Assembly: GCF_054482525.1 (NCBI RefSeq)
Contig: NZ_CM137006.1
DNA: 64,000 bases
Direction: 5' to 3' (one strand)
Both the position numbers and the translations under genes were made by a program. Below are positions 12,264 through 29,925 of this stretch, piece by piece. The first letter of the stretch is position 1, and the number at the start of each line of letters is the position of its first letter. Below the pieces are notes generated by a model. It worked only from the letters and a program-made list of their open reading frames with translations. It made no database searches and was not told where the DNA came from.

Positions 12264-12491
12264 CTGCTCATCCTTGTTTTATCGGGTTATTTGTCTGCTG
12301 ACAGGCGAAACCCTACAGATTTATAAGAAAGCCTTAAGTGAGATATCTGTCAGATAAGAACAATTAGGAAAATATTTATATCACCATGATAAATATCTGA
12401 TTTATTGGGAGGTAACAAACCATCAACATTTTCTGCCCTTTTTCCCATCACCAGGCCATACTGATATTTTTCCTCGCACAAAGGACTCGGC

Positions 12492-13100
12492 ATGAAACTC
12501 GTCGGTAGCTACACCAGCCCGTTTGTACGCAAACTTTCTATTCTGTTGTTAGAAAAGGGTATAACTTTCGAATTTATTAATGAACTGCCCTATAACGCGG
12601 ACAACGGCGTGGCGCAATTTAACCCGTTAGGGAAAGTGCCGGTGCTGGTGGCCGAAGAGGGCGAATGTTGGTTTGATTCGCCGATCATCGCTGAATATAT
12701 TGAATTAATGAATGTCGCTCCGGCGATGTTGCCGCGCGATCCGCTGGAGTCGTTGCGGGTGCGCAAAATTGAGGCGCTGGCGGATGGCATTATGGATGCC
12801 GGGCTGGTATCGGTACGTGAACAGGCGCGTCCGGCGGCGCAGCAGTCTGAAGATGAATTGTTACGCCAGCGGGAGAAAATCAACCGCAGTCTGGATGTGC
12901 TGGAAGGATATCTGGTCGATGGCACGCTCAAAACCGATACGGTCAATCTGGCGACTATCGCCATTGCCTGTGCCGTCGGATATCTCAATTTCCGCCGCGT
13001 TGCGCCAGGCTGGTGTGTCGACCGCCCACACTTAGTCAAACTGATCGAAAACCTGTTTAGCCGCGAAAGCTTTGCTCGCACCGAACCGCCAAAGGCTTGA
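12492..13100 (+). CDS. yibF: Glutathione S-transferase-family protein
   Basis: 202-aa [31 protein letters not shown]..., GST N-terminal thioredoxin-like motif; matches recalled YibF. Confidence 0.9.
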
Positions 13101-13197
13101 TGCGCGATATGTCCTCCTGACCCATCTCACGTTACAATCCGTGGTTATGTTAAACGCCCTTCTCCGTGTGAGAGGGCCTTGATCAGCCAGGTTTCCT

Positions 13198-14589
13198 ATG
13201 ACAACCGAAACGCGTTCCCTCTATAGTCAACTTCCGGCTATTGATCGCTTATTGCGCGATAGCTCCTTCCTTTCTTTGCGTGATACTTATGGCCACACCC
13301 GCGTAGTGGAATTGCTGCGTCAGATGCTTGACGAAGCGCGAGAAGTGATTCGTGATAGCCAGACGCTGCCCGCATGGTGTGAAAACTGGGCGCAAGAAGT
13401 CGATGCCCGACTGACAAAGGAGGCGCAGAGCGCGCTGCGTCCGGTGATCAACCTGACGGGAACCGTGCTGCATACCAATCTTGGGCGAGCTTTACAGGCG
13501 GAAGCCGCAGTGGAAGCCGTTGCGCAGGCTATGCGTTCGCCAGTGACCCTCGAGTACGATCTGGACGACGCCGGACGCGGACATCGCGATCGGGCGCTGG
13601 CGCAGCTGCTGTGCCGCATTACGGGGGCGGAAGATGCCTGTATCGTTAATAACAATGCGGCGGCGGTATTCTTGATGTTGGCGGCCACTGCCAGTGGGAA
13701 AGAGGTGGTGGTATCTCGCGGCGAACTGGTGGAGATTGGCGGCGCGTTTCGTATTCCTGATGTCATGCGTCAGGCAGGCTGCACCCTACACGAAGTGGGG
13801 ACCACCAACCGCACGCACGCTAATGATTATCGTCAGGCGGTGAATGAAAATACCGCGCTGTTGATGAAAGTACATACCAGTAACTACAGCATTCAGGGAT
13901 TCACCAAAGCGATAGATGAAGCGGAACTGGTGGCGCTCGGCAAAGAGCTGGATGTTCCCGTAGTGACTGATTTAGGCAGTGGCTCGCTGGTTGATCTTAG
14001 CCAGTACGGTTTGCCGAAAGAGCCAATGCCGCAGGAGTTGATTGCGGCGGGTGTCAGTCTGGTGAGCTTCTCCGGCGACAAGTTGTTAGGTGGGCCGCAG
14101 GCAGGAATTATTGTTGGTAAAAAAGAGATGATCGCCCGCCTGCAAAGCCACCCGCTGAAGCGTGCATTACGCGCGGATAAAATGACCCTCGCGGCGCTGG
14201 AAGCCACGTTGCGTCTTTATTTACACCCTGAAGCTCTGAGTGAAAAATTACCGACCCTGCGCCTGCTTACCCGCAGCGCAGAGGTCATTCAAATCCAGGC
14301 ACAACGTTTACAGGCTCCCCTTGCCGCACATTACGGCGCGGAGTTTGCGGTACAGGTTATGCCATGTCTTTCGCAGATTGGCAGTGGTTCGCTGCCGGTT
14401 GATCGCCTGCCGAGCGCGGCATTAACGTTTACACCCCATGATGGACGCGGTAGCCACCTTGAGTCATTAGCCGCCCGCTGGCGTGAATTGCCAGTGCCGG
14501 TGATTGGTCGTATTTATGACGGACGATTGTGGCTGGATTTACGCTGCCTTGAAGATGAGCAACGGTTTTTGGAGATGTTGTTGAAATGA
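13198..14589 (+). CDS. selA: L-seryl-tRNA(Sec) selenium transferase
   Basis: 463-aa [24 protein letters not shown]...; PLP-fold motifs; overlaps selB start by 4 bp. Confidence 0.95.
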
Positions 14590-16430
14590 TTATTGCGACT
14601 GCCGGACACGTTGACCACGGCAAAACAACCTTATTGCAGGCGATTACTGGCGTAAATGCCGACCGTCTGCCGGAAGAAAAAAAGCGCGGCATGACCATCG
14701 ATCTCGGTTATGCCTACTGGCCGCAGCCGGATGGCCGCGTGCCTGGTTTTATCGACGTACCCGGTCATGAAAAGTTTCTTTCCAACATGCTGGCGGGCGT
14801 TGGTGGTATCGATCACGCGCTGTTGGTGGTGGCGTGCGATGACGGCGTGATGGCACAGACCCGTGAGCATCTGGCGATTTTGCAGCTGACCGGTAACCCG
14901 ATGCTGACAGTGGCGCTGACCAAAGCCGATCGCGTGGACGAAGCGCGTGTTAATGAGGTTGAACGCCAGGTAAAGGAGGTGCTGCGGGAATACGGTTTTG
15001 CTGAGGCAAAACTGTTTATCACCGCAGCAACCGAAGGTCGGGGAATTGATGCCCTGCGCGAGCATTTGCTTCAGTTACCAGAACGTGAACACGCCAGCCA
15101 ACATAGTTTCCGCCTCGCGATCGACCGTGCATTTACCGTAAAAGGTGCCGGGCTGGTCGTCACCGGTACGGCGTTAAGCGGGGAAGTGAAGGTAGGCGAT
15201 TCACTCTGGCTGACTGGTGTAAATAAACCGATGCGCGTGCGTGCGCTACATGCGCAAAATCAGCCAACAGAAACTGCCCATGCCGGGCAGCGTATCGCGC
15301 TTAACATCGCGGGTGATGCGGAAAAAGAGCAGATTAACCGTGGCGACTGGCTGCTTGCCGATGCGCCGCCGGAGCCGTTCACACGGGTGATTGTCGAGCT
15401 TCAAACCCATACACCGCTGACCCAGTGGCAGCCGCTGCATATTCACCACGCCGCCAGCCACGTTACGGGACGCGTTTCGCTGCTGGAAGATAACCTTGCC
15501 GAGCTGGTGTTCGACACGCCGCTGTGGCTGGCGGATAACGATCGCTTAGTGCTGCGCGATATCTCGGCCCGCAACACGCTGGCGGGGGCGCGTGTGGTGA
15601 TGCTTAACCCGCCGCGTCGCGGTAAGCGTAAGCCGGAATATCTGCAATGGCTGGCGTCTCTTGCACGGGCGCAGAGCGATGCCGATGCGTTATCTGTTCA
15701 TCTGGAACGCGGCGCGGTTAACCTTGCGGATTTCGCCTGGGCACGGCAGCTCAACGGCGAAGGGATGCGCGAACTGCTGCAACAGCCTGGCTATATTCAG
15801 GCTGGTTACAGCTTGTTGAATGCGCCAGTTGCCGCCCGCTGGCAGCGGAAAATTCTCGACACATTAGCGACTTATCATGAGCAACATCGCGATGAACCTG
15901 GTCCTGGGCGCGAACGTCTGCGACGTATGGCGTTGCCAATGGAAGATGAAGCGCTGGTACTGTTGCTGATTGAAAAGATGCGCGAAAGCGGCGACATCCT
16001 CAGTCATCACGGCTGGCTGCATCTGCCGGATCACAAAGCGGGCTTCAGTGAAGAGCAGCAGGCCATCTGGCAAAAAGCAGAGCCGCTGTTTGGTGACGAG
16101 CCGTGGTGGGTGCGAGACCTGGCAAAAGAGACGGGAACCGACGAGCAGGCAATGCGTCTGACGCTACGTCAGGCGGCGCAGCAGGGGATAATTACCGCGA
16201 TCGTTAAAGATCGTTATTACCGTAACGATCGGATTGTCGAGTTTGCCAATATGATCCGCGATCTCGATCAGGAGTGTGGTTCAACCTGCGCGGCGGATTT
16301 CCGCGATCGCTTAGGCGTAGGCCGAAAGCTGGCAATTCAAATCCTGGAATATTTTGACCGCATTGGTTTTACGCGTCGTCGGGGAAATGATCATTTATTG
16401 CGCGACGCATTATTATTTCCGGAAAAATAA
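14586..16430 (+). CDS. selB: Selenocysteine-specific translation elongation factor
   Basis: 614-aa ORF with N-terminal GTPase motifs ([21 protein letters not shown]). Confidence 0.95.
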
Positions 16431-16489
16431 GGAAATGATTAATTAAGTTTTAAAATAAATTAATACAAAATTCTTATGAATTTAAAAAA

Positions 16490-16525
16490 AGCACATTGTT
16501 TAATGAATACAATGTGCTTTTTATT
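16490..16525 (+). terminator. Rho-independent terminator after selB
   Basis: Stem agcacattgt / acaatgtgct with 9-nt loop followed by ttttatt. Confidence 0.6.
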
Positions 16526-16619
16526 AGATTAATTTTGATAAACAATAATACTGATCATATTTTCGAATGAAAATCCTCAGTAAGCTGCCCGCCCTTTTTT
16601 ACACTTTCAGGAGTGTGTT

Positions 16620-17771
16620 ATGGCAGCTTCAACCTTTTTTATTCCTTCCGTGAATGTTATTGGTGCTGATTCATTGAATGATGCAATGAATATGATGGCA
16701 GATTATGGATTTACCCGTACCTTAATTGTCACTGACAATATGTTAACGAAATTGGGTATGGCGGGTGATGTGCAAAAAGCACTGGAAGAACGCAATATTT
16801 TTAGCGTTATTTATGATGGCACCCAACCTAACCCCACCACGGAAAACGTCGCTGCAGGTTTGAAATTACTTAAAGAAAATAATTGCGATAGCGTGATCTC
16901 CTTAGGCGGTGGTTCTCCGCACGACTGCGCAAAAGGTATTGCGCTGGTGGCAGCCAATGGCGGCGATATTCGCGATTACGAAGGCGTTGACCGCTCTGCA
17001 AAACCGCAGCTGCCGATGATCGCCATCAACACCACGGCGGGTACGGCCTCTGAAATGACCCGTTTCTGCATCATCACTGACGAAGCGCGTCATATCAAAA
17101 TGGCGATTGTTGATAAACATGTCACTCCGTTGCTTTCTGTCAATGACTCCTCTCTGATGATTGGTATGCCGCAGTCACTGACCGCCGCAACGGGTATGGA
17201 TGCCTTAACGCACGCTATCGAAGCGTATGTTTCTATTGCTGCCACGCCGATCACTGACGCTTGTGCATTGAAAGCGGTGACCATGATTGCCGAAAACCTG
17301 CCGTTAGCCGTTGAAAATGGCAGCAATGCTAAAGCGCGTGAAGCAATGGCTTATGCCCAGTTCCTCGCTGGCATGGCATTCAACAACGCTTCTCTGGGTT
17401 ATGTTCATGCGATGGCGCACCAGCTGGGCGGTTTCTACAATCTGCCGCACGGTGTATGTAACGCCGTTCTGCTGCCGCATGTTCAGGTATTCAACAGCAA
17501 AGTCGCCGCTGCGCGTCTGCGTGACTGTGCTGCTGCTATGGGCGTGAACGTGACAGGCAAAAATGACGCGGAAGGCGCAGAAGCGTGCATCAATGCCATC
17601 CGTGAACTGGCGAAGAAAGTGAATATCCCGGCAGGCCTGCGTGACCTGAACGTGAAAGAAGAGGATTTCGCGGTACTGGCCACCAATGCCCTGAAAGATG
17701 CGTGTGGGTTTACTAACCCGATTCAGGCAACTCACGAAGAAATTGTGGCGATTTATCGCGCTGCGATGTAA
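16620..17771 (+). CDS. yiaY: Iron-containing (group III) alcohol dehydrogenase
   Basis: 383-aa ORF with GGGSPHD and metal-binding His motifs typical of Fe-ADH; matches recalled YiaY. Confidence 0.92.
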
Positions 17772-17785
17772 TCATCATTCCCCCA

Positions 17786-17849
17786 ATGGCTGGCTAATTG
17801 TCAGCCATTTTTTAAACTCTCTCAAAATTTGCGATTTTTGAGAGAGTTT
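17786..17849 (+). terminator. Two tandem hairpins after yiaY (terminator plus 11-bp-stem inverted repeat)
   Basis: atggctg/cagccat stem followed by tttttt (17786..17813); then ctctctcaaaa / ttttgagagag perfect 11-bp inverted repeat (17817..17845) followed by tttt. Confidence 0.5.
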
Positions 17850-17971
17850 TAGTTATCTCTGTAATCCTTGCCCGTAAATTCGTGATAGCCGTCGTAAAGC
17901 TATCACCAGTTGGCGAAGATTTCGCCAGCCACGTCTACCCTTGTTATACCTCACACCGCAAGGAGACGATC

Positions 17972-19510
17972 ATGACCAATAATCCCCCTTCAGCACAGAT
18001 TAAGCCCGGCGAGTATGGTTTTCCTCTTAAGTTAAAAGCCCGTTATGACAACTTTATCGGCGGCGAGTGGGTAGCCCCTGCCGACGGCGAGTATTACCAG
18101 AACCTGACGCCGGTGACCGGGCAGCTGCTGTGCGAAGTGGCGTCTTCGGGCAAACGAGACATCGATCTGGCGCTGGATGCTGCGCACAAAGTGAAAGATA
18201 AATGGGCGCATACTTCGGTGCAGGATCGCGCGGCGATTCTGTTTAAGATCGCCGATCGGATGGAGCAGAACCTCGAACTGTTAGCGACCGCTGAAACCTG
18301 GGATAACGGCAAACCCATTCGCGAAACCAGTGCTGCCGATGTGCCGCTGGCGATTGACCATTTCCGCTATTTCGCCTCGTGTATTCGGGCGCAGGAAGGC
18401 GGTATTAGTGAAGTGGATAGCGAAACCGTGGCTTATCACTTCCACGAACCGTTAGGCGTGGTGGGGCAGATTATTCCGTGGAACTTCCCGCTGCTGATGG
18501 CGAGCTGGAAAATGGCCCCCGCGCTGGCGGCGGGCAACTGTGTGGTGCTGAAACCCGCACGTCTTACCCCGCTTTCTGTACTGCTGCTAATGGAAATCGT
18601 CGGTGATTTACTGCCGCCAGGCGTGGTGAACGTGGTCAACGGTGCAGGTGGGGAAATTGGCGAATATCTGGCGACCTCGAAACGCATCGCTAAAGTGGCG
18701 TTTACCGGCTCAACGGAAGTGGGCCAACAAATTATGCAATACGCTACGCAAAACATTATTCCGGTAACCCTGGAGCTGGGCGGCAAATCGCCAAATATCT
18801 TCTTTGCTGATGTGATGGATGAAGAAGATGCCTTTTTCGATAAAGCGCTGGAAGGCTTTGCACTGTTTGCCTTTAACCAGGGCGAAGTTTGCACCTGTCC
18901 AAGCCGTGCTTTAGTACAGGAGTCTATCTACGAACGCTTTATGGAACGCGCCATCCGCCGTGTCGAAAGCATTCGTAGCGGTAACCCACTCGACAGCGTG
19001 ACGCAAATGGGTGCGCAGGTATCTCACGGGCAACTGGAAACCATCCTCAATTACATTGATATCGGCAAAAAAGAGGGCGCAGACGTGCTCACCGGCGGGC
19101 GGCGCAAGCTGCTGGAAGGCGAACTGAAAGACGGCTACTACCTTGAACCGACTATTTTGTTTGGTCAGAACAATATGCGGGTGTTCCAGGAGGAGATATT
19201 TGGCCCGGTGCTGGCGGTGACCACCTTCAAAACGATGGAAGAAGCGCTGGAGCTGGCGAACGATACGCAATATGGCCTGGGCGCGGGCGTCTGGAGCCGC
19301 AACGGTAATCTGGCCTATAAGATGGGGCGCGGCATTCAGGCTGGGCGCGTGTGGACCAACTGTTATCACGCTTACCCGGCACATGCGGCGTTTGGCGGCT
19401 ACAAACAGTCGGGCATCGGACGCGAAACCCATAAGATGATGCTTGAGCATTACCAGCAAACCAAGTGCCTGCTGGTGAGCTACTCGGATAAACCGTTGGG
19501 GCTGTTCTGA
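17972..19510 (+). CDS. aldB: NAD(P)-dependent aldehyde dehydrogenase B
   Basis: Translation from ATG at 17972 ([33 protein letters not shown]...) gives 512 aa with ALDH motifs (ELGGKSP, catalytic Cys region); the 30 upstream codons of the ORF track are an extension. Confidence 0.93.
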
Positions 19511-19516
19511 TGTGAA

Positions 19517-19552
19517 AGGCAGGCAACGTTAATAGTTGTCTGCCTTTGTTTT
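19517..19552 (+). terminator. Rho-independent terminator after aldB, shared with the convergent gene
   Basis: Stem aggcaggcaac / gttgtctgcct (one mismatch) with gttaata loop followed by ttgtttt; the stop of the minus-strand 359-aa gene lies in the T-run. Confidence 0.6.
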
Positions 19553-20630
19553 AGTTGTATAAAGCGGCAGTCGCTTTTAACTCATCGCTGAAAGAATAAA
19601 TATCATCGAGAGATTCAATAGGATGGCGGGTTTCGTTTTTCTCTAAGTCAAATAAACCAATATATTTTTGATTTCGATTGAAATGTAATCTACAGAGTGG
19701 TTTTCGATTATTGTCATCTACAAGTATACCAAAATAGCTTTTTGTATCTCTGTGGACTATTCGTGGTGCATCAAGCACTACGCGGACTATAGCTTTAACA
19801 ATATGAAATCCTTCAAGTTCCTCCATAGTAGTGGCAATATCGGTTTCTTCTTTATTAATACATTCTACTTCCTCATTGTGTGAATTCGAATCAATTACAG
19901 ATAATGACCCACCACCTATTGCCGATTTCAATCTTTCGTTTATTTGAGAGCCAATATATTGATTGGCAGCTTTCTTTGTTAATTTTGCAAACGTATCTTT
20001 TACCTTTTGTGTTAACATACCTTCATAAATTCTTGCTGCAAAGAATTTTACAAAATCCTCTTCAGGATTATTCATTTGTGCATGGAGAACTTTTTTAATT
20101 AAACTAACATATTTTAATTCACCTGCAGCATTAATTATTGATTCCAAATCAAATGCTGATTTAGTAAGCTTTTTTATCTCGGGAACAACTGTTTCGTCTA
20201 AGTCAAGTAGATCTATCTCAAGAAATGGTTTTTCATCCATTTTATTAGGTGCTTCTAAATCAGTAAAAAATTTATAAACTTGTCCATTGGTTAGAATAGA
20301 TATTCTTGCATTTGTTACATGAAAGTATCGAAAAAGCTGTGAAGCATGATTTATATTTAGAGGATCACCAATTTTTTTGCATTCAATGAGAATCTGAACC
20401 TCGCTATTTTTTAAGATTGCATAGTCAATCTTTTCACCTTTCTTCGTTCCAATATCGCATACAAACTCTGGGATAACTTCGGTAGGATCAAAGACATCAT
20501 AACCTAACACATTGTTAATGAACGGCATTACGAAAGCATTTTTGGTAGCTTCCTCCGTTTCAATGACTCCGGCTTGTTGTTTTATTTTTGCGGATAATGA
20601 ATTCAGCTTATCTATAAACTCCATAGACAT
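19551..20630 (-). CDS. Uncharacterised 359-aa protein with N-terminal PD-(D/E)xK (HsdR-N-like) nuclease-fold domain; candidate defence gene
   Basis: ATG with AAGGAG RBS; N-terminal ~120 aa contain PEF...KIDYAIL...ILIECKK (E-D-ExK arrangement typical of HsdR N-terminal/Mrr-like nuclease domains); helical middle; unassigned C-terminal region VVLDAPRIVHRDTKSYFGILVDDNNRKPLCRLHFNRN; visibly AT-rich gene. Confidence 0.75.
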   Translation of the reverse strand: MSMEFIDKLNSLSAKIKQQAGVIETEEATKNAFVMPFINNVLGYDVFDPTEVIPEFVCDIGTKKGEKIDYAILKNSEVQILIECKKIGDPLNINHASQLFRYFHVTNARISILTNGQVYKFFTDLEAPNKMDEKPFLEIDLLDLDETVVPEIKKLTKSAFDLESIINAAGELKYVSLIKKVLHAQMNNPEEDFVKFFAARIYEGMLTQKVKDTFAKLTKKAANQYIGSQINERLKSAIGGGSLSVIDSNSHNEEVECINKEETDIATTMEELEGFHIVKAIVRVVLDAPRIVHRDTKSYFGILVDDNNRKPLCRLHFNRNQKYIGLFDLEKNETRHPIESLDDIYSFSDELKATAALYN

Positions 20631-21072
20631 TATAACTCCTTTTATATATATTTAATAAAAATGCGTTTGATAAAAATATAGAAAATATTTATATATTAAC
20701 GCCTTATCATTGGTCATAGTTAATGTATAACACACAAAAAATAATGTTTGCACATTGTAAATACAATGGTGAAACAAACTTGATATTTATCAAGAAAATA
20801 AAACAATGTCTTTTATTGGTTGTTTTAAACGTCCAATGAATACGAGTTGGAGCTATAGCAAGACTAGCTTCGATATCGCATGGATAATCTAATACAGATT
20901 TTTTAACACCTAATACTATGAGTTATATGTAAATTGCGAGCATCCTCGCATCTTTTCAACAAGTTACTGCACACCGTTATTCTCCTTCCGAGCGAGTCAA
21001 CTTTATCCCCCTGACGGCCCATATAAATCGCGCTATCGTGATTGTTATCGCTAATTGTGTGTGTATCGTGTG

Positions 21073-21078
21073 TATAAT
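21073..21078 (+). promoter_or_regulatory. Candidate -10 hexamer (TATAAT) for hicAB
   Basis: Perfect TATAAT 18 nt upstream of the hicA start, followed by GGAAGGG RBS-like sequence; no convincing -35 identified. Confidence 0.3.
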
Positions 21079-21095
21079 CATGGAAGGGCAGGGAT

Positions 21096-21281
21096 GTGAA
21101 AAGTGCAGACGTGATCGCTATCCTGAAGCAGCATGGCTGGGAACATATTCGAACCCGTGGCAGTCATCATCAGTTCCGCCACCCTGTTCATCCGGGTCTG
21201 GTGACGGTTCCGCACCCTAAAAAAGATATTAAGCCCGGTACGCTGGCGCAAATTGGGCGTCAGGCTGGTTTAACATTTTAA
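21096..21281 (+). CDS. hicA: HicA-family mRNA interferase toxin
   Basis: 61-aa ORF (GTG start) with GSHHQFRHP...HPKKDIKPGTLAQIGRQAGL, the HicA/YcfA-like signature; followed by hicB. Confidence 0.8.
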   Translation: MKSADVIAILKQHGWEHIRTRGSHHQFRHPVHPGLVTVPHPKKDIKPGTLAQIGRQAGLTF

Positions 21282-21297
21282 AATTTCAGGAGGCAAT

Positions 21298-21708
21298 ATG
21301 TTTTATCCCGCCTATATCCACAGTGATCCTGACGGCAGCGCCAGCGGTTTTTTCCCTGATGTTCCAGGCTGTTATTTTGCTGGTGATACGCTGGACAACG
21401 CTTTCCAGGATGCGCGAAGTGCACTTGTCGCGCACTTCGAAACCTTATGCGAGATGAATGAAGAGTTGCCGCTTCCAGGCTCTGTGGAAACACATCTGGT
21501 CCAGCGTGCGCAGGACTTTATTGGCGGGCAATGGTTGCTGGTGGATATCAATATGAATCAGTTCGAAGGTCGGGCTGAACGTATCAATATTACGATGCCG
21601 AAAAGATTACTGAACAAGATTGATACCTACGTGCGCAATAACCCAGACTACGCCAACAGAAGTGCGTTTCTGGCGGAAGCTGCCCGGCGTGTATTGCCGG
21701 GCGCTTAA
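21298..21708 (+). CDS. hicB: HicB-family antitoxin with C-terminal DNA-binding region
   Basis: 136-aa ORF 17 bp downstream of hicA; N-terminal HicB-like fold sequence and C-terminal RHH-like segment (ITMPKRLLNKIDTYV...AFLAEAARRVL). Confidence 0.8.
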   Translation: MFYPAYIHSDPDGSASGFFPDVPGCYFAGDTLDNAFQDARSALVAHFETLCEMNEELPLPGSVETHLVQRAQDFIGGQWLLVDINMNQFEGRAERINITMPKRLLNKIDTYVRNNPDYANRSAFLAEAARRVLPGA

Positions 21709-21779
21709 TCCCGCGTTTCGATGGTTGGCGGGCAACCGCACCGATATGTTGATACTGATAAGACGCGTTAAGCGTCGCA

Positions 21780-23744
21780 TCATGCGCTGGTTTCCTCATT
21801 CACCCAGATCCGCATTTCGCCTTCACCCCGGTTAGCCCAGCTAAACCACGGGATAAATGTCAGAGTTTGCGGCTGGCGTTTGGCTGGGGCATAGTCGTAA
21901 TGCCACAGCGGTTGCTGCTCTGGATTGCTCTGTTCATACCGGTAACCCGGTGCCTGGATTAAGATCTTATGGCGGAACAATCCTTTGCCTTCAAATGTCG
22001 TAAATGGCGCATCGGCGGGCAGCCACAGGTTATGCAGTGACTCGCCGTTGTCGGCCTGTTCCAGGCAATACACCAGCGGGCCGCGCTGAATCGCCACTTT
22101 TCCGGCGACGTGACGCACCAGCGGGTTACCGTAAACGCGACGTACCGGCATTGGCAAAGTCAGATTCAGCGTGTCACCCTCCTGCCATTCGCGGGTAATG
22201 TGCAAATACCCTTTACGAATATCCTGCTCGACCTCTTCCCCATTCAATATGATCTGCGGCTGTGTGCACCAGTCCGGCAGACGTAAAGCCAGCGTATGAC
22301 GTACCGGCTGGGGCGATTCGACCGCAATCGTCACCTGCTCCTGCCACGGATAGTTCCCGCTAACCCGCAGGCGCAACGTGCCATTTTCTACCGGCACTTC
22401 CATGCTGTTTCCTGCGTAGATGTTGATATACAACGCATCTTCACGCGGCGTGTAGAGATAATGACCAATCGAGGTCAGCACGCGGGCGATATTTGGCGGA
22501 CAACAAGCGCAGCCAAACCAACGCTGGCGGATCGGTTTAACGTGATCGTAGATATGGTTGAATTTCAGCGATTTTGGATGTACTTCCAGCGGATTCACAT
22601 AGAAGAAATGTTTGCCATCCAGTGCCATGCCGCCGAGCACAGTGTTGTACAGCGCGCGCTCCATCACATCGGCATATTGACTGTCGCCTTCCATTTCCAG
22701 CATTCGCCGGGCGAACATCATCAGGCCGATGGAAGCACAGCTTTCGGCGTATACCGTGTCATTCGGCAGATCGTAATCGCTGCTGAACGCTTCGCCGCTG
22801 CTTTGTGAGCCAATGCCGCCGGTAATATATAACTGACGCTGGGCCATATTGTTCCACAGCCGCAGGCAATCCTGACGCTTGCTTTCATCGTGACTTAAAC
22901 GCGCCAGATGTGCGACGCCAGTCATCAGATATACAAAGCGTACTGCATGTCCGATGGCGGTTTGTTGCTGTGCGATGGGCAAATGCGCCTGGCTGTAGGC
23001 TTTATCTTTCACCATCCACGCCGGGCCGTAGGTGTGCCAGTGCGAGGTCTGCCCGCGCTTTTCATATTCCTGGTCGTAATAGTGCGGTTGCGCACCACGC
23101 TGTTCGACAAAATAGTTCGTCAGCGCCAGGTAGCGCGGCTCTTCGGTCACTTCATACAGGCGCATTAGTGCCAGTTCAATTTCCGGGTGACCAGGATAAC
23201 CGTGTAACTTACTTTCACCTGGACCAAATACGCTGTCGATATGATCGGCCAGACGGCAAACCACTTCCAGCAAGCGCCGCTTGCCCGTGGCCTGGAAGAA
23301 GGCGACTCCGGCTTCAATCAGATGACCGGCGCAGTAAAGTTCATGACACTCTGCCAGATTGCTCCAGCGTTCTTCGGGTGCTTTTACCGTAAAGTAAGTA
23401 TTGAGATAGCCATCTTCGCACTGGGCGGAAGCGACCAGTTCGATTACCTCGTCGGCGGTTTTTTCCAGTTCGGCGTCCGGCTTCTGGCACAGCGACCAGG
23501 CTACCGCTTCCAGCCATTTGGCGACGTCGCTGTCCTGAAACACCATCCCGTAAAATTCACCCTCCTGAAGTCCGGCGGCAATGCGAAAGTTTTCAATCGC
23601 ATGGCTGGGTTCCGCTTCTGGGATACGATCGTTCAAGGCATCCCACTGATAAGGAATCACCACGTCGCGGACCAGTTGTTGGTACTGACCGAGGAACGGA
23701 TCGCTGACCGTCAGTTTATGCAGATCGACTTCCGAAATGTTCAT
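21780..23744 (-). CDS. Glycoside hydrolase family 127 (DUF1680, beta-L-arabinofuranosidase-like) protein
   Basis: 654-aa translation from ATG at 23744 (MNISEVDLHKL...) with perfect AAGGAG RBS; Cys-rich C-terminal CACCPPN motif and overall similarity pattern to HypBA1-type enzymes as recalled; ORF-track 670-aa version is an extension. Confidence 0.75.
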   Translation of the reverse strand: MNISEVDLHKLTVSDPFLGQYQQLVRDVVIPYQWDALNDRIPEAEPSHAIENFRIAAGLQEGEFYGMVFQDSDVAKWLEAVAWSLCQKPDAELEKTADEVIELVASAQCEDGYLNTYFTVKAPEERWSNLAECHELYCAGHLIEAGVAFFQATGKRRLLEVVCRLADHIDSVFGPGESKLHGYPGHPEIELALMRLYEVTEEPRYLALTNYFVEQRGAQPHYYDQEYEKRGQTSHWHTYGPAWMVKDKAYSQAHLPIAQQQTAIGHAVRFVYLMTGVAHLARLSHDESKRQDCLRLWNNMAQRQLYITGGIGSQSSGEAFSSDYDLPNDTVYAESCASIGLMMFARRMLEMEGDSQYADVMERALYNTVLGGMALDGKHFFYVNPLEVHPKSLKFNHIYDHVKPIRQRWFGCACCPPNIARVLTSIGHYLYTPREDALYINIYAGNSMEVPVENGTLRLRVSGNYPWQEQVTIAVESPQPVRHTLALRLPDWCTQPQIILNGEEVEQDIRKGYLHITREWQEGDTLNLTLPMPVRRVYGNPLVRHVAGKVAIQRGPLVYCLEQADNGESLHNLWLPADAPFTTFEGKGLFRHKILIQAPGYRYEQSNPEQQPLWHYDYAPAKRQPQTLTFIPWFSWANRGEGEMRIWVNEETSA

Positions 23745-23754
23745 CTTGTGCTCC

Positions 23755-25155
23755 TTAAGGCTGTACATGACGCTGACGCAGGTCGCTAGCAATGCGTGAC
23801 ATCATAGGGTTATTGAGTTTGCAAAAGCGGATCGCCCCTGCCAGCAGCAGGTGGAATAGCGCAGGCAGTAATGTTTCCATCGCCGCGATGCCGCCAAGCG
23901 AACTGGCGGTCTGGTTTTCCACGCCAGGCTGGTAGGCGACAAAAATAAACAGCAGGCTGATGATCCCGGCGCTGGAGGCCCAGGCCAGTTTGATGAAAAA
24001 CAGATTGAAGGCGAAGTTCATGCCGGAAGAACGTACGCGGGTTTTCCACTCGCCGTAGTCATCGGCAAAGGCCATCAATGAGAAGTGCAGTGGCAATGTG
24101 AAGCCAAGAATCACGCCATTACCGAGGATCACCGCCAGCCACAGCGTTTGATAAGCCGGGCCGGAGGGCAGGAACCACATCAACACCGCCAGTGAAGCGA
24201 GGAGCAGGTTGGTGTAGTAATAAATTTTGACGGTATCGAAACGTCGCGTTAACGGGCTGACAATCACCGAGCCGATAATGGAGGCGAAGGTGACCATAGT
24301 GAAGAACAGCGACGTGTAGCCCGTACTGCCTTGTAAGACGTAGGTAATAAAGTACATATACCCACCGCCGCGAATATTAAAGACGTTAATCAGCAGGAAA
24401 GACATGACCAGCATCAGCAGCAGTTGGTCGTTGTTCCGCAGCCCGGCAAGATGTTCGCGCAGGGTAAATTTCCCCATTGTGGAGAGCGGCACCCGTTCAC
24501 GAACCCAGAAGAAACAGCACAGTAACATCACCACGGCAATGGCGCACAATACGCCGACGCCCAGTTGATAGCCGCGCGCGGCATTACCCTGACCGAAGAG
24601 ATCTACCATCCACGGTAAGCCTACCGAAACCAGAAATCCCGCCACGCCGCAGAGAACGAATCGCCAGGACTGGCAGGAGATCACTTCATTGTGGCGGGTG
24701 GTCATGGTGTTGATCAGCGCGCAGTACGGCACGTTGATGGCGGTATAACCGACTGAAAGGAGCAGGTAAGTGCCGAACGCCCAGGCGATTTTTACTCCCA
24801 TGCTGGCATCTGGCACGGTGAACGTCAGGATGCCGATAATGCCGATGGGAATGGCAATCCACAACTGCCACGGACGAAAGCGCCCCCAGCGACTTTGCGT
24901 CCGGTCGGCAATGACGCCCATCACCGGGTCGGAGATGGCATCAAACACGCGCAGTGCAATAAACAGCGTGCCGACCAGCGCCGGAGTTAAGCCAAAAACG
25001 TCGGTGTAGAAAAAGGTGAGAAAGTTCATGATCAGGCAAGTTATTACGGTGCCGCCTGCGTCACCCAGGCCGTAGCCTATTTTTTCCCGTACAGATAACG
25101 CATCGTCAATTTTACCTTTAGCGATATCAGCGGTAGTAATCGGTGTAGAGGTCAT
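23755..25155 (-). CDS. GPH-family (glycoside-pentoside-hexuronide:cation) symporter
   Basis: 466-aa ORF with 12 predicted hydrophobic segments and MelB/YicJ-like N-terminus ([10 protein letters not shown]...[21 protein letters not shown]). Confidence 0.8.
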
Positions 25156-25380
25156 AGATATTCCTCGTGAATAGGGAGCAATTTTTAGTTTTATTGCAAT
25201 GACCTGATTAATTCTGCCGTGAACGGGAATATCAACAAGGCGAGAAAAGAGTAAAAAAAGGTGACGATTCCGACCTGAATTTAAAAGTGTGAAATGGATC
25301 AGGTGAAATTAATGTTTTTGATTAATAATCAAAAGGTAATGTGTTTAATCATTAATGAATAAGCGGGAAATTACATATCA

Positions 25381-26196
25381 ATGCTCGAATTATCCATGAC
25401 GTTACCGATTAAAGTGCAAAATGGTGGATTATTTATTTCCCGTGGCGTAGGGAGGCATCCGGCAAGGCGGCTGGAGTCATGGGAAATTATCTTTGTCGAA
25501 AAAGGTCGATTAGCGATTCAGGAAGAAGAGCGGATATTTCTGGTCGATGCGGGAGAGAGTTTATTACTCTGGCCGAACCGACAGCATGTTGGGGTAGAGG
25601 ATTTTCCCGCTGATCTCAAATTTTACTGGCTGCATTTTGAGGTTAAAGCGCCGGACAACGACCCGCGCTGGCTCACTCATCTTAGCGTGCCGCAACAAAC
25701 AAAGGTTGCCGATCCGCAGGCGTTGGTGGTCCTGTTTCGCCAGTTCTTAAGCGAACAGGAAAAGCATCAACGCACTCCGGCGCTGGAGTTTATTGTGCTG
25801 CTGATTTTGCAGCAACTCACCCGTGACGCGCGTCTTGATGAACAGGCCGATGCCGCAGGTACCACGCTTGCCTGGAAAGCGCAGAAACTGATCCGCACGC
25901 AATATCATCGCCCGCTTTCTACGGCGCTTTTAGCCCGCGAGCTGTACTGCAATGCCGATTATCTTGGGCGTGTCTATCGGCGGGTGTTTCATCTGACGTT
26001 AACAGAAGCAATTCATCGCCAGCGAGTGCGCGAAGCCGAAAAGCTGTTAATTAGCGAAGCGCGATCGCTCACTGAAGTGGCGGCGTTGTGCGGGTTTAAT
26101 GACGTTGGCTATTTCCGGCAGATTTTTCGCAAACACACCGGTTTAACGCCAGCTGCGTGGAAGCGACGTTACAGCAAGGAACATATCAATTCGTAG
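25381..26196 (+). CDS. AraC/XylS-family transcriptional regulator
   Basis: 271-aa ORF with C-terminal AraC-type HTH signature (LTEVAALCGFNDVGYFRQIFRKHTGLTPAAWKRR); divergent from the transporter gene. Confidence 0.8.
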   Translation: MLELSMTLPIKVQNGGLFISRGVGRHPARRLESWEIIFVEKGRLAIQEEERIFLVDAGESLLLWPNRQHVGVEDFPADLKFYWLHFEVKAPDNDPRWLTHLSVPQQTKVADPQALVVLFRQFLSEQEKHQRTPALEFIVLLILQQLTRDARLDEQADAAGTTLAWKAQKLIRTQYHRPLSTALLARELYCNADYLGRVYRRVFHLTLTEAIHRQRVREAEKLLISEARSLTEVAALCGFNDVGYFRQIFRKHTGLTPAAWKRRYSKEHINS

Positions 26197-26227
26197 TGCC
26201 GGGGCGATGAAGCCCCGGCGTGAGGGA

Positions 26228-26923
26228 TTACTGCCCGTAATAGGCATTGGCCCCATGTTTACGCAGGTAGTGCTTATCCAGCAGTTCGTTTTGCATGGCA
26301 GGGAGCTGCGGCGCAAGCTGGCGCGAGAACAGGCCCATATAGGCGCACTCTTCCAGCACCACGGCATTATGCACCGCATCGGCGGCGTTTTTACCCCAGG
26401 CGAACGGGCCGTGAGAATGCACCAGTACCGCCGGGATTTGCGCCGGACTCCTGCCGCGTTCTTCGAAAGTTTCAATGATCACTTCGCCGGTCTGGTATTC
26501 ATACTCGCCGTTGATCTCCTCTGCGGTCATCTGTCGCGTGCAGGGGATTGCGCCATAGAAATAATCGGCGTGCGTGGTGCCCCAGGCAGGGAGATCCAGC
26601 CCGGCCTGTGACCAGATGGTGGCGTGGCGCGAGTGGGTATGCACAATGCCACCGATTTCGGCATAGCGACGGTAAAGCGCCAGATGCGTTGGCGTATCGG
26701 ACGAGGGCTTTTTGCTACCTTCCACCACCTTGCCGCTGGCTATCTCAACCACCACCATATCGTCGGCGGTCATCACGTCGTACTCGACGCCGGAAGGTTT
26801 GATTACCATCCATTGCCGCGTTTCGTCTATCGCGCTGACATTGCCCCAGGTGAACGTCACCAGATGGTGAGCGGGAAGCGCCAGATTCGCCGCCAGCATG
26901 TCGGCTTTCAGTTGCTCTAACAT
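26228..26923 (-). CDS. sgbE: L-ribulose-5-phosphate 4-epimerase
   Basis: 231-aa ORF; class II aldolase/epimerase motifs; matches recalled SgbE. Confidence 0.92.
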
Positions 26924-27777
26924 ATAAATCCAGCCTCCTGCATACGCGCTTCAATCCAGCGCCGCGCCTGAATAATCTCCAGCACCGGCTCTTTGGCTTT
27001 TTCGGTCCACATCTCAATCAGGAAAGAACCGCGATAGTTCAGTTCATGCAGCGTTTTGAAGATGCCAACGAAATCGACGCAGCCTTCGCCAAACGGCACA
27101 TCACGGAACTGTCCGGGATTTTGCCCGGTGACTGGCAGGGTGTCTTTCAGATGGATTGCGGCAATACGGTCAATGCCCAGTTTCAGTTCGGCGGGAACAT
27201 CATTGCCCCAGGCGCTGAGGTTGCCGACGTCCGGGTAGACGGTGAACCACGGCGAGGCGAGCATCTCGTCCCACTTTTTCCATTTGCTGATGGAGTTCAT
27301 AAACGCGGTATCCATAATCTCCACCGCCAGCATTACTTGTGATGCCGCCGCCTGTTCGACCGCCCACGCCAGCCCTTCAGCAAAACGTTGCTGGGTGCCT
27401 TCGTCGTGGTCTTCGTAATAGACGTCATAACCCGCCAGTTGAATGGTGCGAATGCCGAGATCGCGCGCCAGGCGAATCGCTTTACTCATGATTTCCCGCG
27501 CCCGTTCGCGCACCGCCTTGTCCCGGCTGCCAAAGGGAAAGCGACGATGTGCGGACAGGCACATTGACGGAATGGCAACACCCGTTTCGATCATCGCGGC
27601 AACCAGCGAAGTCCTTTGTGCGGCGCTCCAGTCAAGACGTGAGAGCCGTTCGTCGGTTTCATCCACCGACATTTCGACAAAATCAAAGCCACAGCTTTTT
27701 GCCAGCACCAGCCGCTCCGGCCAGGAGAGATCTTTCGCCAGCGCTTTTTCATAAATCCCTAACGGATGATTACGCAC
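26917..27777 (-). CDS. sgbU: L-xylulose-5-phosphate 3-epimerase
   Basis: Translation from GTG at 27777 ([23 protein letters not shown]...) gives 286 aa as recalled for SgbU; start choice uncertain, ORF track extends to 27867. Confidence 0.88.
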
Positions 27778-28432
27778 GCGCGCCTCCCCAGATGGCATCA
27801 ATTTGCGCATGGAAATCGCCAGCCACCTGCGCCGGATTTGCTGCGCCTGCCAGCGCCCGCCCGGCAATAAACGCTTTCACGCGGATATCTTTAAACAGCG
27901 GCAGGTCAGCAGGGGTAATCCCGCCGGTAATGGAAAGCTCAAGGCCGATATCGGAAAGCGCCTTCATGCGTGCCAGATCGGCTTCGCCCCACTGTTGCCC
28001 GCTGGCCTGCGCGTCGCGACCGCGATGATAAATCGCCTGCCGCACGCCAATACGATGCCAGTCGCGGGCGTCGTCCAGCGTCCAGTTACCGAACAGCTCT
28101 ATCTGAATTTCACCACCGCAGCGTTGCGCCATGGCGTGGCCTTTTTCCACCGTCGCGAGCGGCGCGGCGCAGATGATGGTCATCCAGTTAGCGCCTGCGC
28201 CAAACGCCTGTTGCGCGAGCGTTTCACCAGCGTCGGCGACCTTCCAGTCAGCAACGATGATTTTGTCCGGGCACTGTTCGCGCAAGGCTTTCACCGCGCC
28301 AAGCCCTTCGTTTAAACAGAGAATGGTGCCCGCTTCGACGATATCGACGCTGTCTTTTAACAGCGTCACGTCGCGCTGCGCGGCTTCAAGTGATGAGTGG
28401 TCGAGGGCCAGTTGCAGAAGTGGTCGGCTCAT
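27770..28432 (-). CDS. sgbH: 3-keto-L-gulonate-6-phosphate decarboxylase
   Basis: 220-aa ORF, OMP-decarboxylase-like fold sequence; operon position between lyxK and sgbU. Confidence 0.92.
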
Positions 28433-29925
28433 AATGTGTGCTCCTTGATGCGGGCGTGATAACCCTGAAGTGCGGCAATGAGATGCTGATAGCGTTGGTA
28501 TTTTTGTTGGTAAAGCTGATGGGCGGTCATATCCGGCAGCAGGGTGCGTACCGGGTGCTGTAAATCACGTTGGGCTTCGCTGAAATCGCGATAAACTCCG
28601 GTGCCGACGCGGGCGGCAAGTGCCGCACCAAAGCAGCCGGTTTCTTCCACCTGCGGCAGTTCGATACGCAGCCCGCTGACGTCCGCCAGCATTTGCATCC
28701 AGACATCGGAATGCGCCGGACCGCCAGTGACGCGCAGGGTGTGCACATCAGTAAAACGTTCGCGCATCCGGTTGAGATGGGTCATATGGCTGAACACCAC
28801 GCCTTCATAAATTGCCTGCAACAGGTGTGCGCGGGTGTGAATGGCCTGCATCCCGTAGAAACCGCTGGTCATCTCGAGTCCGGCGTTGCTGCCGTACAGG
28901 AACGGCAGGAAAAAGAGATCGCCCCCGGCCTTTGGCAAGCTGGCAACGGCCTGGTTAATCTCATCAAACGAGATTTCTCCCCACTGTGCGGTAAACCATT
29001 CGAGGTTGCCGGAAGAGGTGGGGCTGGCTTCGTGAACGATAAATTGACCATCGTTAACGTAGCGACCATAGACATACGGATGCGCTTCACCGTCACGTAA
29101 ACCACGGGTTATGCCGCTGGTCACCGCCCAGGTGCCCATCACCGCATTAAGGGTAAATTCGTCTTCGATCCCGGCGCAGAGTGCGGTGGAAACCACATCA
29201 AACAGGCCGCCGACAACGGGCGTACCCGCTTTCAGACCGGTCAGTGCGGATGTCTGAGCGGTGATCTCCCCGCAGATTTCGGCAGATCCGACAACAGGCG
29301 GCAGGGCGTGGTTGATTTCAGCGATCCCAAGCCAGTCGGTGAGGCACGGGTCATATTCCCCAAGACTCATGTTGTAGAGATTGGACTCGGAAATATTGCT
29401 CTCTTCGCAGCCTTTGACGCCGGTTAAACACCAGCGCAGGTAGTCGTGCGTCATCATCACGCAGCCAATTTGCGCGTAGCGTTCCGGTTCGTGCTCTTTC
29501 AGCCAGCGTAACAGCGACACCGGATGCCCGGTCCACAAGGTTTGTCGCGTCAGCGGGTAGAGTTTTTCCGGGATGCCATCTTCCTGCCAGCGACGAACGA
29601 TTTCCATCGCCCGGCGATCCGAGGACAAAATGGCGTTACCGAGCGGCTTGTCGTTTTTATCCAGCAAAAACAAGCCCTTTCCCTGTGCGGAGATGCCGAT
29701 ACCGACTATTTGTTCCCCGCTAACACCAGAATGAGTAAGCAGGGGGCGAATGACAGCCATGCAGCATTGCCACAGTTCTGCCATATCGCGCTCTGCCCAG
29801 CCTGGCTGCGGGCTTAATGCGCACAGCGGCAGGCGTTGCACGCCTGCCTCCCGGCCTTCGCGGTCATACAGCCCGGCTTTCAGCCAGCTACCGCCACAAT
29901 CTAACCCCAGCCAGTATTGCGTCAT
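28429..29925 (-). CDS. lyxK: L-xylulose / 3-keto-L-gulonate kinase
   Basis: 498-aa FGGY-family sugar kinase ORF; overlaps sgbH start by 4 bp. Confidence 0.92.
   Translation of the reverse strand: MTQYWLGLDCGGSWLKAGLYDREGREAGVQRLPLCALSPQPGWAERDMAELWQCCMAVIRPLLTHSGVSGEQIVGIGISAQGKGLFLLDKNDKPLGNAILSSDRRAMEIVRRWQEDGIPEKLYPLTRQTLWTGHPVSLLRWLKEHEPERYAQIGCVMMTHDYLRWCLTGVKGCEESNISESNLYNMSLGEYDPCLTDWLGIAEINHALPPVVGSAEICGEITAQTSALTGLKAGTPVVGGLFDVVSTALCAGIEDEFTLNAVMGTWAVTSGITRGLRDGEAHPYVYGRYVNDGQFIVHEASPTSSGNLEWFTAQWGEISFDEINQAVASLPKAGGDLFFLPFLYGSNAGLEMTSGFYGMQAIHTRAHLLQAIYEGVVFSHMTHLNRMRERFTDVHTLRVTGGPAHSDVWMQMLADVSGLRIELPQVEETGCFGAALAARVGTGVYRDFSEAQRDLQHPVRTLLPDMTAHQLYQQKYQRYQHLIAALQGYHARIKEHTL

Follow-up and report, generated by a model that had tools for sequence, protein, structure and literature searches.

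Genome dynamics in Escherichia coli are reportedly organised, with variable segments in the pan-genome, a picture attributed to the 2009 work of Touchon et al. Here we examine the interval between aldB and sgbE in a 64,000-nucleotide stretch of DNA (the window; contig NZ_CM137006.1 of assembly GCF_054482525.1), in which a gene for a nuclease-like protein, the toxin–antitoxin (TA) pair hicAB and a sugar locus of GH127, GPH and AraC genes lie between two conserved anchors. The window sequence matches the chromosome of E. coli PCN033 (NZ_CP006632.1) at 100% identity (megablast); PCN033 is a porcine extraintestinal pathogenic strain (ExPEC) of phylogroup D and serogroup O11 (PMC4578781). The GH127 gene found here is reported to be variably present and to co-segregate with epithelial invasion in isolates from inflammatory bowel disease (IBD) (PMC11879602). 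Upx is described as a single-protein, dual PD-(D/E)XK anti-phage nuclease whose canonical catalytic core is C-terminal (PMC13099982).

An original prediction, made from the sequence of the window, had read this content as an accessory block integrated at a hotspot in place of yiaT-yiaU-yiaV-yiaW. Its gene list (nuclease-like gene, hicAB and GH127/GPH/AraC) agrees with the RefSeq annotation and the open reading frames (ORFs), and its account of K-12 was right, in that MG1655 carries yiaW, yiaV, yiaU and yiaT between aldB and sgbE. The comparison with other genomes mostly reverses the direction of change. Very probably, the interval is an old enterobacterial neighbourhood in which independent deletions, and not foreign integration, were the main source of the E. 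coli variants, with two small, old additions besides.

Haplotypes, outgroup synteny and deletion junctions

The panel comprises 5,426 complete E. coli genomes, searched by megablast with module and junction-spanning queries. Positions 17800-28500 of the window return coverage classes of about 100, 87, 79, 78, 57, 40 and 37%, and alignment to K-12 and the panel distinguishes at least seven haplotypes, so that the predicted variability of the interval is real. GPEC60 represents state (a), aldB-yiaWVUT-GH127-GPH-AraC-sgbE, and K-12 state (b), in which two pseudogene fragments lie between aldB-yiaWVUT and sgbE. PCN033 (c) carries nuclease-hicAB-GH127-GPH-AraC, U1 (d) hicAB-GH127-GPH-AraC, and EC958 (e) GH127-GPH-AraC alone. 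In OZ121072 (f), the ‘empty’ haplotype, aldB is followed directly by sgbE, and 2017-02-2CC (g) shows the maximal order aldB-hicAB-104-aa ORF-yiaWVUT-GH127-GPH-AraC-sgbE.

Together these seven haplotypes cover about 5,350 of the 5,426 genomes. yiaWVUT is found in 3,727-3,816 genomes, the sugar locus in 2,313-2,324 (~43%), intact hicAB in 505 and the nuclease cassette, always chromosomal, in 188-191. Among the junctions, that of the K-12 scar occurs in 2,460 genomes, aldB|GH127 in 567, the ‘empty’ aldB|sgbE in 481 and intact hicAB adjoining yiaWV in 16 (chimeric query); by subtraction, about 300 genomes are of the U1 type and about 1,300 have both yiaWVUT and an intact sugar locus. The PCN033 arrangement accounts for a minority of 3.5%, and the K-12 arrangement, the largest single class (45%), falls short of a majority and is not ancestral. 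Every component is annotated as belonging to a known family, and what is seen here is ordinary genome variation; no description of the aldB-sgbE interval as a hotspot was found in the published literature. The O157-like strain 2009C-3554 has a state (a) interval but has lost the entire sgb/yiaK-S operon. Beyond its AraC gene come, in this order, an IclR-family (yiaJ-like) remnant (L008 14058-14773) and ysaA, so that the right side of the interval shows a further large deletion.

Outgroups were sampled by an AldB scan of species-representative genomes, followed by tblastn with all interval proteins; statements about them refer to the matches listed, which include many distant aldehyde dehydrogenases, with E. 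albertii as the sole other Escherichia. Among the matches listed, Citrobacter sp. FP75 and C. werkmanii carry aldB-yiaW-yiaV-yiaU-yiaT-GH127-GPH-AraC(-sgbE-sgbU), which is the order and orientation of E. coli state (a), Leclercia carries aldB-yiaU-yiaT-GH127-GPH-AraC, and Enterobacter cloacae, Pseudescherichia vulneris and Kluyvera carry aldB-GH127-GPH-AraC. The sugar locus, two thirds of the PCN033 block, is syntenic beside aldB or yiaT in at least five other genera, and its GPH protein shares 86-90% amino-acid (aa) identity with the outgroup proteins. This synteny indicates that yiaWVUT and the sugar locus are both ancestral at this position. hicAB was not detected at the locus in non-Escherichia outgroups among the matches listed (tblastn), and it alone is Escherichia-specific within the sampled outgroups. 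E. coli and several other genera have, some 6-7 kb upstream of aldB, a pair of DUF3302/HlyD paralogues of YiaW-YiaV, yibI-yibH (68-79% protein identity; L089 306-1807; L009 3057-4549; L023 3057-4555), so the yiaWV module has a nearby duplicate; in the window the pair would be expected at about 10900-12400.

K-12 itself bears the scar of a loss. A 4.0-kb segment, window positions 22072-26092, is missing from K-12-type genomes by alignment to K-12; 190 bp of the GH127 3′ end (89% identity to 21882-22071) are fused directly to AraC sequence from 26093 onward, that is, to its last ~100 nt, with essentially no microhomology at the junction. RefSeq annotates both pieces as partial pseudogenes. Because the sugar locus is syntenic in outgroups, is present in ~43% of E. 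coli and has left this scar, its absence from K-12 is a loss and its presence in PCN033 is no gain.

The other haplotypes map in the same manner onto the maximal locus of 2017-02-2CC (L089, to which the following coordinates are local), all of them as deletions, with the addition in PCN033 of one replacement of 102 bp by 1.42 kb. In K-12-type genomes, 8957-9702, which covers hicA and the greater part of hicB, is gone, as is 9825-9980. The EC958 type has lost 8957-13644, which is the DNA between the repetitive extragenic palindromic (REP) element after aldB (8928, plus strand) and the REP after yiaT (13665, minus strand), and two segments, 8909-9756 and 9781-18164, are missing from the ‘empty’ type. 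Microhomology at the deletion junctions amounts to 0-2 nt; REP core positions were located in L089, K-12 and EC958. yiaWVUT was removed from PCN033 by a plain 3.8-kb deletion, also with 0-2 nt of microhomology, that took out 9812-13635 (the 104-aa ORF and yiaW-yiaV-yiaU-yiaT). Its junction, mapped to 21733-21756 of the window, is identical in PCN033 (21733/21756) and the nuclease-less U1, and the portion that truly replaces yiaWVUT stops there, at ~21733-21756, and not at 26227. Overlapping this junction is a degenerate REP-like palindromic element (21755-21782), of which 28 bp agree at 96% with the sequence 3′ of yiaT in GPEC60 and L089. We take it to be a REP on the basis of the REP consensus, its counterpart being the REP downstream of yiaT. 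The hypothetical 104-aa ORF lies directly 3′ of hicB in the maximal haplotype (L089 9783-10097, minus strand); it is cut to 47 aa in K-12 (L002 3376-3519) and deleted in PCN033, and it has a partial protein match between aldB and GH127 in Kluyvera (L013 11788-11865).

The retained sugar locus comprises, in the window, a gene for a GH127-family glycoside hydrolase (beta-L-arabinofuranosidase family; 21780-23744, minus strand; RefSeq, NCBIfam at family level), a gene for a GPH/MFS glycoside-pentoside-hexuronide:cation symporter (23755-25155, minus strand; TIGR00792, 332 bits, cutoff 231) and, divergent from the latter, an AraC-family regulator gene (25381-26196, plus strand; RefSeq and NCBIfam AraC-family matches). 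The GH127 protein scores 457 bits against the NCBIfam aceric acid hydrolase model, below its cutoff of 950, and is assigned at family level only; Pfam PF07944, PF20736 and PF20737, the GH127 domains, are found on the Citrobacter orthologue. Hydrolase, transporter and regulator are encoded together, as is characteristic of GH127 loci, and from these family memberships the trio likely imports and cleaves a beta-L-arabinofuranoside-type glycoside. In EC958 (ST131), the GH127 gene is annotated as frameshifted (L004 3324-5293), a sign that the sugar locus is in decay in at least one of the lineages that have kept it.

hicAB remnants and the nuclease cassette

hicA (21096-21281, plus strand, GTG start) encodes a 61-aa HicA-family type II toxin (RefSeq; phrog_353 ‘toxin’, 8.7e-23), and hicB (21298-21708, plus strand) encodes a 136-aa antitoxin with a C-terminal DNA-binding end of ribbon-helix-helix (RHH) type (full-length Pfam HicB_lk_antitox match, 9e-36; phrog_497 HicB-like, 2.4e-33). 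The toxin gene lies upstream of the antitoxin gene on the same strand, with a spacer of 16 nt, as in HicAB modules. HicB aligns to the solved structure 6g1n through residue 133, including the RSAFLAEAARRVL helix, and to 4p78 through residue 131, and it thus has the C-terminal DNA-binding domain (RHH or helix-turn-helix, HTH) expected of this antitoxin family. By homology, HicA would be an mRNA interferase neutralised by HicB. The pair is a locus separate from the K-12 hicAB pair, and of the pair described here K-12 holds only a 49-bp remnant (megablast).

This remnant is part of a wider pattern, in which the 3′ end of hicB and the adjacent downstream bases (21625-21725, plus strand) persist in other haplotypes. 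K-12- and GPEC60-type genomes have a hicB piece ~150 bp 3′ of aldB and upstream of yiaW, which combines ~84 bp from the end of hicB, in which 12 bp are deleted internally, with ~20 bp of downstream sequence; 21625-21673 and 21686-21725 are both found there in K-12 and GPEC60, and the 49-bp hicB core is 98-100% identical in ~3,400 genomes without intact hicAB. In ‘empty’ OZ121072 and the E. albertii type strain, 21679-21702 is identical at 24 of 24 positions, and this 24-bp hairpin, directly after the aldB stop codon, corresponds to hicB codons 128-135, the end of the RHH helix. The reading of the hairpin as an ancestral aldB terminator captured by hicB was rejected because these codons form a native RHH helix that aligns to solved HicB. 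The remnants in K-12-type, ‘empty’ and E. albertii genomes indicate that hicAB is old in Escherichia, and the predicted intermediate, with intact hicAB beside yiaW, was found in the 16 genomes mentioned above, for which L089 shows the complete interval.

The nuclease cassette (19511-20931, 1.42 kb, 31.6% GC; mapped against L089 and U1) is the only gain-like difference: 1,418 bp (19514-20931) occupy the position that a REP-bearing spacer of 102 bp has in L089 and U1. A short GC-rich hairpin, TGCGAGCATCCTCGCA, lies at 20935-20950 upstream of hicA and is followed by the T-run TCTTTTC; it is the exact point at which homology with nuclease-less haplotypes resumes. The cassette encodes a stand-alone, 359-aa HsdR-N-like PD-(D/E)XK nuclease (19551-20630, minus strand), which RefSeq calls ‘type I restriction endonuclease’. 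Its Pfam matches, to HSDR_N_2 and HSDR_N, are weak and confined to residues 26-129, and it matches phrog_4225 ‘endonuclease’ over its full length (1e-130). The family is large, with 5,263 representatives (50% clustering) at E<1e-3 and 1,209 at E<1e-30, and its members are mostly 350-370 aa long and align end to end. In 74 homologues (38-84% identity), K30, E55, D69 and E83 are invariant and K85 is conserved in >90%; the conservation of D69, E83 and K85 is the D...E-x-K signature of the PD-(D/E)XK catalytic motif. In an AlphaFold2 model (pLDDT 92.3), the N-terminal alpha/beta nuclease domain has the restriction-endonuclease-like fold; the model also shows a long linker of helices, a small alpha-beta5-alpha domain at the C terminus and, at 243-260, a disordered loop. 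The protein is probably a Mg2+-dependent DNA endonuclease.

The RefSeq name is a misnomer, because the protein has no SF2 motor domain (no ResIII or Helicase_C in Pfam) and its gene has no hsdM or hsdS neighbours; its identity as an HsdR subunit was accordingly rejected. The neighbours are aldB and hicAB in PCN033 and aldB and yiaW in Citrobacter. A search of the Protein Data Bank (PDB) by sequence matched no chain, and Foldseek gave no PDB match at E <=0.001 and none that covers the whole protein. Against PADLOC-DB v2, the nuclease has no full-length defence match and one domain-level match, to REase_MTase_IIG (E 3.7e-7, residues 50-181), and HicA and HicB have zero matches. Upx was also rejected as a relative, since the catalytic core of the nuclease is N-terminal and there is no sequence or fold match. 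Temperate phages of Porphyromonas, Corynebacterium, Enterococcus and Fusobacterium carry homologues of the nuclease, as do plasmids of Borrelia and Curtobacterium.

Closer homologues place the gene in the same neighbourhood of other genera. In Citrobacter sp. S2-9 (84% aa identity) and C. freundii (82%), the slot is the one used in PCN033: the gene converges with aldB, and yiaW comes next. The Citrobacter DNA is collinear, at 78% identity, from within aldB via the hairpin between the two genes to ~20 bp upstream of the nuclease start. Citrobacter carries an analogous hairpin at the same place, and its nuclease copies have 33-35% GC; since they are equally AT-rich, composition does not date the arrival of the cassette. 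Between genera, the synonymous sites of the nuclease gene are saturated (synonymous divergence, dS, is not computable) and those of the adjacent aldB have dS 1.1-1.25, so that dating against Citrobacter and Enterobacter gives a lower bound only. Cassette copies within E. coli differ by dS up to 0.085 and by nonsynonymous divergence (dN) of 0.002-0.005, a low dN relative to dS that indicates purifying selection on the nuclease. The carriers have different flanks, with or without a Fic-family gene upstream of aldB and with different aldB alleles. These sequence comparisons give no sign of a recent inter-genus transfer of the nuclease.

Alternative histories of the interval

We infer the following course of events. 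The ancestral Escherichia/Citrobacter order would have been aldB-yiaW-yiaV-yiaU-yiaT-GH127-GPH-AraC-sgbE, and hicAB would have arrived between aldB and yiaW early in Escherichia. The nuclease gene may be a long-standing, low-frequency occupant of the slot after aldB, as in some Citrobacter. K-12-type genomes would then have lost hicA and most of hicB and, later, 4.0 kb of the sugar locus, leaving the scar; B2-type genomes would have lost everything between the two REP elements; and the ‘empty’ genomes and E. albertii would have lost all but 24 bp of hicB. The lineage of PCN033 and U1 would have kept hicAB and the sugar locus and lost the 104-aa ORF and yiaWVUT in a single illegitimate deletion of 3.8 kb, with the nuclease cassette additionally taking the place of the 102-bp REP spacer in PCN033-type genomes. 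Homologous recombination through the genes on either side probably moved these presence/absence alleles from lineage to lineage, which would account for the mosaic aldB of every strain compared. Within E. coli, aldB is unusually polymorphic, with 93-98% pairwise identity per segment and dS of 0.14-0.19, values not far from those against E. albertii (91-95% identity), and this polymorphism suggests frequent recombination, or old balanced alleles, around the interval. No Citrobacter-like or carrier-specific tract was found in the aldB 3′ end of nuclease carriers.

At the place of the yiaY-aldB spacer (~17772-17971 of the window), a gene for a Fic-family protein of 431 aa is present in EC958 (L004 202-1497), OZ121072 (L007 218-1513), 2009C-3554 (L008 2718-4013), MS6198 (L097 1056-2351) and E. 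albertii (L022 91-1383). It is absent from PCN033, K-12, U1 and L089 and is a second presence/absence polymorphism, just upstream of the interval.

Several observations weigh against this history. The order and number of deletions were derived from shared junctions and parsimony and not from a species tree, and the outgroup matches listed include no E. fergusonii, E. marmotae or E. ruysiae. To arrive at the ‘empty’ haplotype, two deletions are required that spare precisely the 24-bp hairpin, which is somewhat contrived unless the hairpin was retained as an aldB terminator. A homologue in Enterobacter asburiae (78% aa) sits in a different slot, after yiaT and before ysaA, a position that calls for at least one relocation, or one independent acquisition, inside the neighbourhood and lends some support to a region that accepts such genes. 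The nuclease is absent from both Citrobacter genomes that are GTDB representatives (tblastn), and in the five inspected loci it occurs only on the hicAB-positive, yiaWVUT-deleted haplotype. A single old gain on that haplotype is plausible, and the gene may either have been retained from the Escherichia-Citrobacter ancestor or be an old import through aldB homology.

The view that the whole 6.7-kb block is an accessory island, integrated at a recurrent hotspot and displacing yiaT-yiaU-yiaV-yiaW, can draw on a content that differs from K-12, on an AT-rich first 1.4 kb and on several alternative contents at the site, but it meets the synteny of the sugar locus in at least five other genera, the deletion scar in K-12 and the plain 3.8-kb deletion by which yiaWVUT disappeared. 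Also against it are the coexistence of yiaWVUT and the sugar locus in ~1,300 E. coli and in Citrobacter and the composite nature of the block, whose three modules are distributed separately (~190, 505 and ~2,320 genomes). Signs of mobility are missing as well, and deviant composition is limited to 1.4 kb. RefSeq annotates no integrase, recombinase, transposase or phage gene at 17.8-28.5 kb, where there are no further large ORFs; ARAGORN found no tRNA or tmRNA in 16000-29000, and no Rfam family matched. Direct repeats had been proposed as a check on the boundaries, but a repeat search of 19300-21900 returned short, chance-level matches only, and no direct, inverted or att repeats bracket the cassette or the block. 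With integrase, insertion sequence (IS), tRNA and flanking repeats all not found, an integration hotspot is not supported, and the K-12 scar and outgroup synteny largely refute the island, which we consider extremely improbable. IS1 occurs only in two derivative strains of the PCN033 haplotype. In PEC148 it interrupts the AraC gene (L006 9036-10628), and in ETEC4075 it abuts selB (L090 4288-5328), with yiaY, aldB and the nuclease gene gone and the last 328 bp of the cassette left.

A gain limited to the 1.42-kb cassette is possible, although we doubt it: the cassette would have entered a hicAB-only (U1-type) haplotype from an enterobacterium with an aldB-adjacent copy, its left end through homologous recombination within aldB and its right end through a join that was illegitimate or used short homology. 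Its low frequency (3.5%), its GC of 31.6%, its restriction to the yiaWVUT-deleted, hicAB-positive haplotype in the inspected loci, the homologues in temperate phages and plasmids of many phyla, the different slot in Enterobacter and the mosaic aldB, which frequent recombination predicts, are all consistent with such a gain. However, the aldB 3′ end of the carriers shows no donor-like tract, dS is saturated against all sampled Citrobacter and Enterobacter copies, so that no close donor is among them, dS of up to 0.085 within E. coli implies long residence, and the 33-35% GC of the Citrobacter copies removes composition as a guide to arrival. With some 1,200 clusters at 50% identity in many phyla and in temperate phages, the nuclease family might also represent a single-gene, nucleic-acid-targeting immunity or exclusion factor, and the slot after aldB a small, old Escherichia/Citrobacter ‘defence slot’ with a balanced presence/absence polymorphism beside HicAB, a reading that we find rather unlikely. 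It is improbable that nuclease and HicAB form one anti-phage ‘defence islet’ (for instance, a nuclease effector with TA-type abortive infection) kept by selection. The two are adjacent in ~190 genomes, HsdR and type IIG restriction enzymes have PD-(D/E)XK domains similar to that of the nuclease, and the latter belongs to a family found in prophages and is under purifying selection. Yet ~300 genomes have hicAB without the nuclease, Citrobacter and Enterobacter have the nuclease without hicAB, and these independent distributions make one joint system unlikely. Nuclease and hicAB are moreover divergently oriented, 465 bp apart; PADLOC adds only the weak domain-level match of the nuclease (E 3.7e-7) and none for HicA or HicB, and the flank genes that were searched in the supplements of a survey of E. 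coli defence islands do not include this interval. Differential loss from an old neighbourhood accordingly stays the preferred account of the interval as a whole.

Layout of the interval and comparison with known systems

Gene calls follow the RefSeq annotation in agreement with the ORF list. The conserved left anchor, aldB (17972-19510, plus strand; RefSeq), scores 917 bits against the NCBIfam model for acetaldehyde dehydrogenase ExaC (cutoff 900), and the right anchor, sgbE (26228-26923, minus strand; annotated in RefSeq as araD), encodes an L-ribulose-5-phosphate 4-epimerase (PRK12347, 510 bits, cutoff 386). An inverted-repeat search finds a terminator-like hairpin with a 13-bp stem, followed by a T-run, at 19515-19547 between the convergent aldB and nuclease genes; it is likely a bidirectional terminator and forms part of the nuclease cassette. 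The convergent AraC and sgbE genes are separated by a GC-rich hairpin read from the sequence (26198-26219, GCCGGGGC-gatgaa-GCCCCGGC), likewise a likely bidirectional terminator.

Neither boundary of the block is quite as first proposed. The left one does lie near aldB, but not after the hairpin, since haplotype divergence starts at the aldB stop codon (19510/19511), and the hairpin at 19515-19547 is therefore variable DNA and not conserved flank. The right one falls at the AraC/sgbE junction, at the sgbE stop codon (26228/26229), only relative to the ‘empty’ aldB|sgbE haplotype; against K-12 it lies within the AraC gene (26092/26093), and 21882-22071 is also kept in K-12. The AT-rich start that had been noted is real, extending for about 1.4 kb after aldB at ~31% GC. 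In 400-bp windows, GC is 29-34% over 19600-20999 and 50-58% in the flanks, and hicAB and the sugar locus, at 49-58%, resemble the flanks, so that only 19511-20931 deviates. A second AT-rich dip, of 32-37% GC, lies at 16200-16800, in the selB-yiaY spacer and the start of yiaY.

The value of these results is mainly corrective. K-12 is a poor reference for what is ‘core’ here, being a deletion-scar genome, and differences from it cannot be read as insertions without outgroups. The RefSeq name ‘type I restriction endonuclease’ misleads for a 359-aa protein, and the GH127 locus, reportedly linked to invasiveness in IBD isolates (PMC11879602), has been lost in the laboratory strains usual for work on E. 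coli metabolism. The large, conserved nuclease family could merit a defence assay, and the practical consequences are otherwise modest.

Compared with known systems, the interval resembles variable segments of the E. coli pan-genome in its presence/absence haplotypes between conserved anchors, in the REP elements at or near breakpoints and in alleles spread across phylogroups in a way consistent with homologous recombination. It is unlike them in having no mobile element or tRNA, and in reflecting mostly the loss of ancestral genes and not gain. In gene order, and in the alignment of HicB through its C-terminal RHH helix, hicAB resembles the solved examples from Burkholderia pseudomallei (HicAB, 6g1n) and Yersinia pestis (HicB3, 4p78). 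The GH127 protein has the catalytic, middle and C-terminal domains common to HypBA1 of Bifidobacterium and the aceric acid hydrolase of Bacteroides, and its gene is likewise paired with a transporter and a regulator. The locus described here, however, is enterobacterial, has a GPH cation symporter where HypBA1-type loci have an ABC transporter, and encodes a protein below the equivalog cutoff for the Bacteroides-type aceric acid hydrolase (457 against 950 bits). The nuclease differs from HsdR and type IIG enzymes (3h1t, EcoR124I 2w00, DrdV 7lo5 and BpuSI 3s1s) in that it lacks an SF2 motor/ATPase and any methyltransferase or specificity domain, and it stands alone at 359 aa, whereas the HsdR chains compared exceed 800 aa. 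Its C-terminal alpha/beta domain is conserved and small and has no PDB counterpart, and with Upx it shares the design of a single-gene PD-(D/E)XK protein with additional domains.

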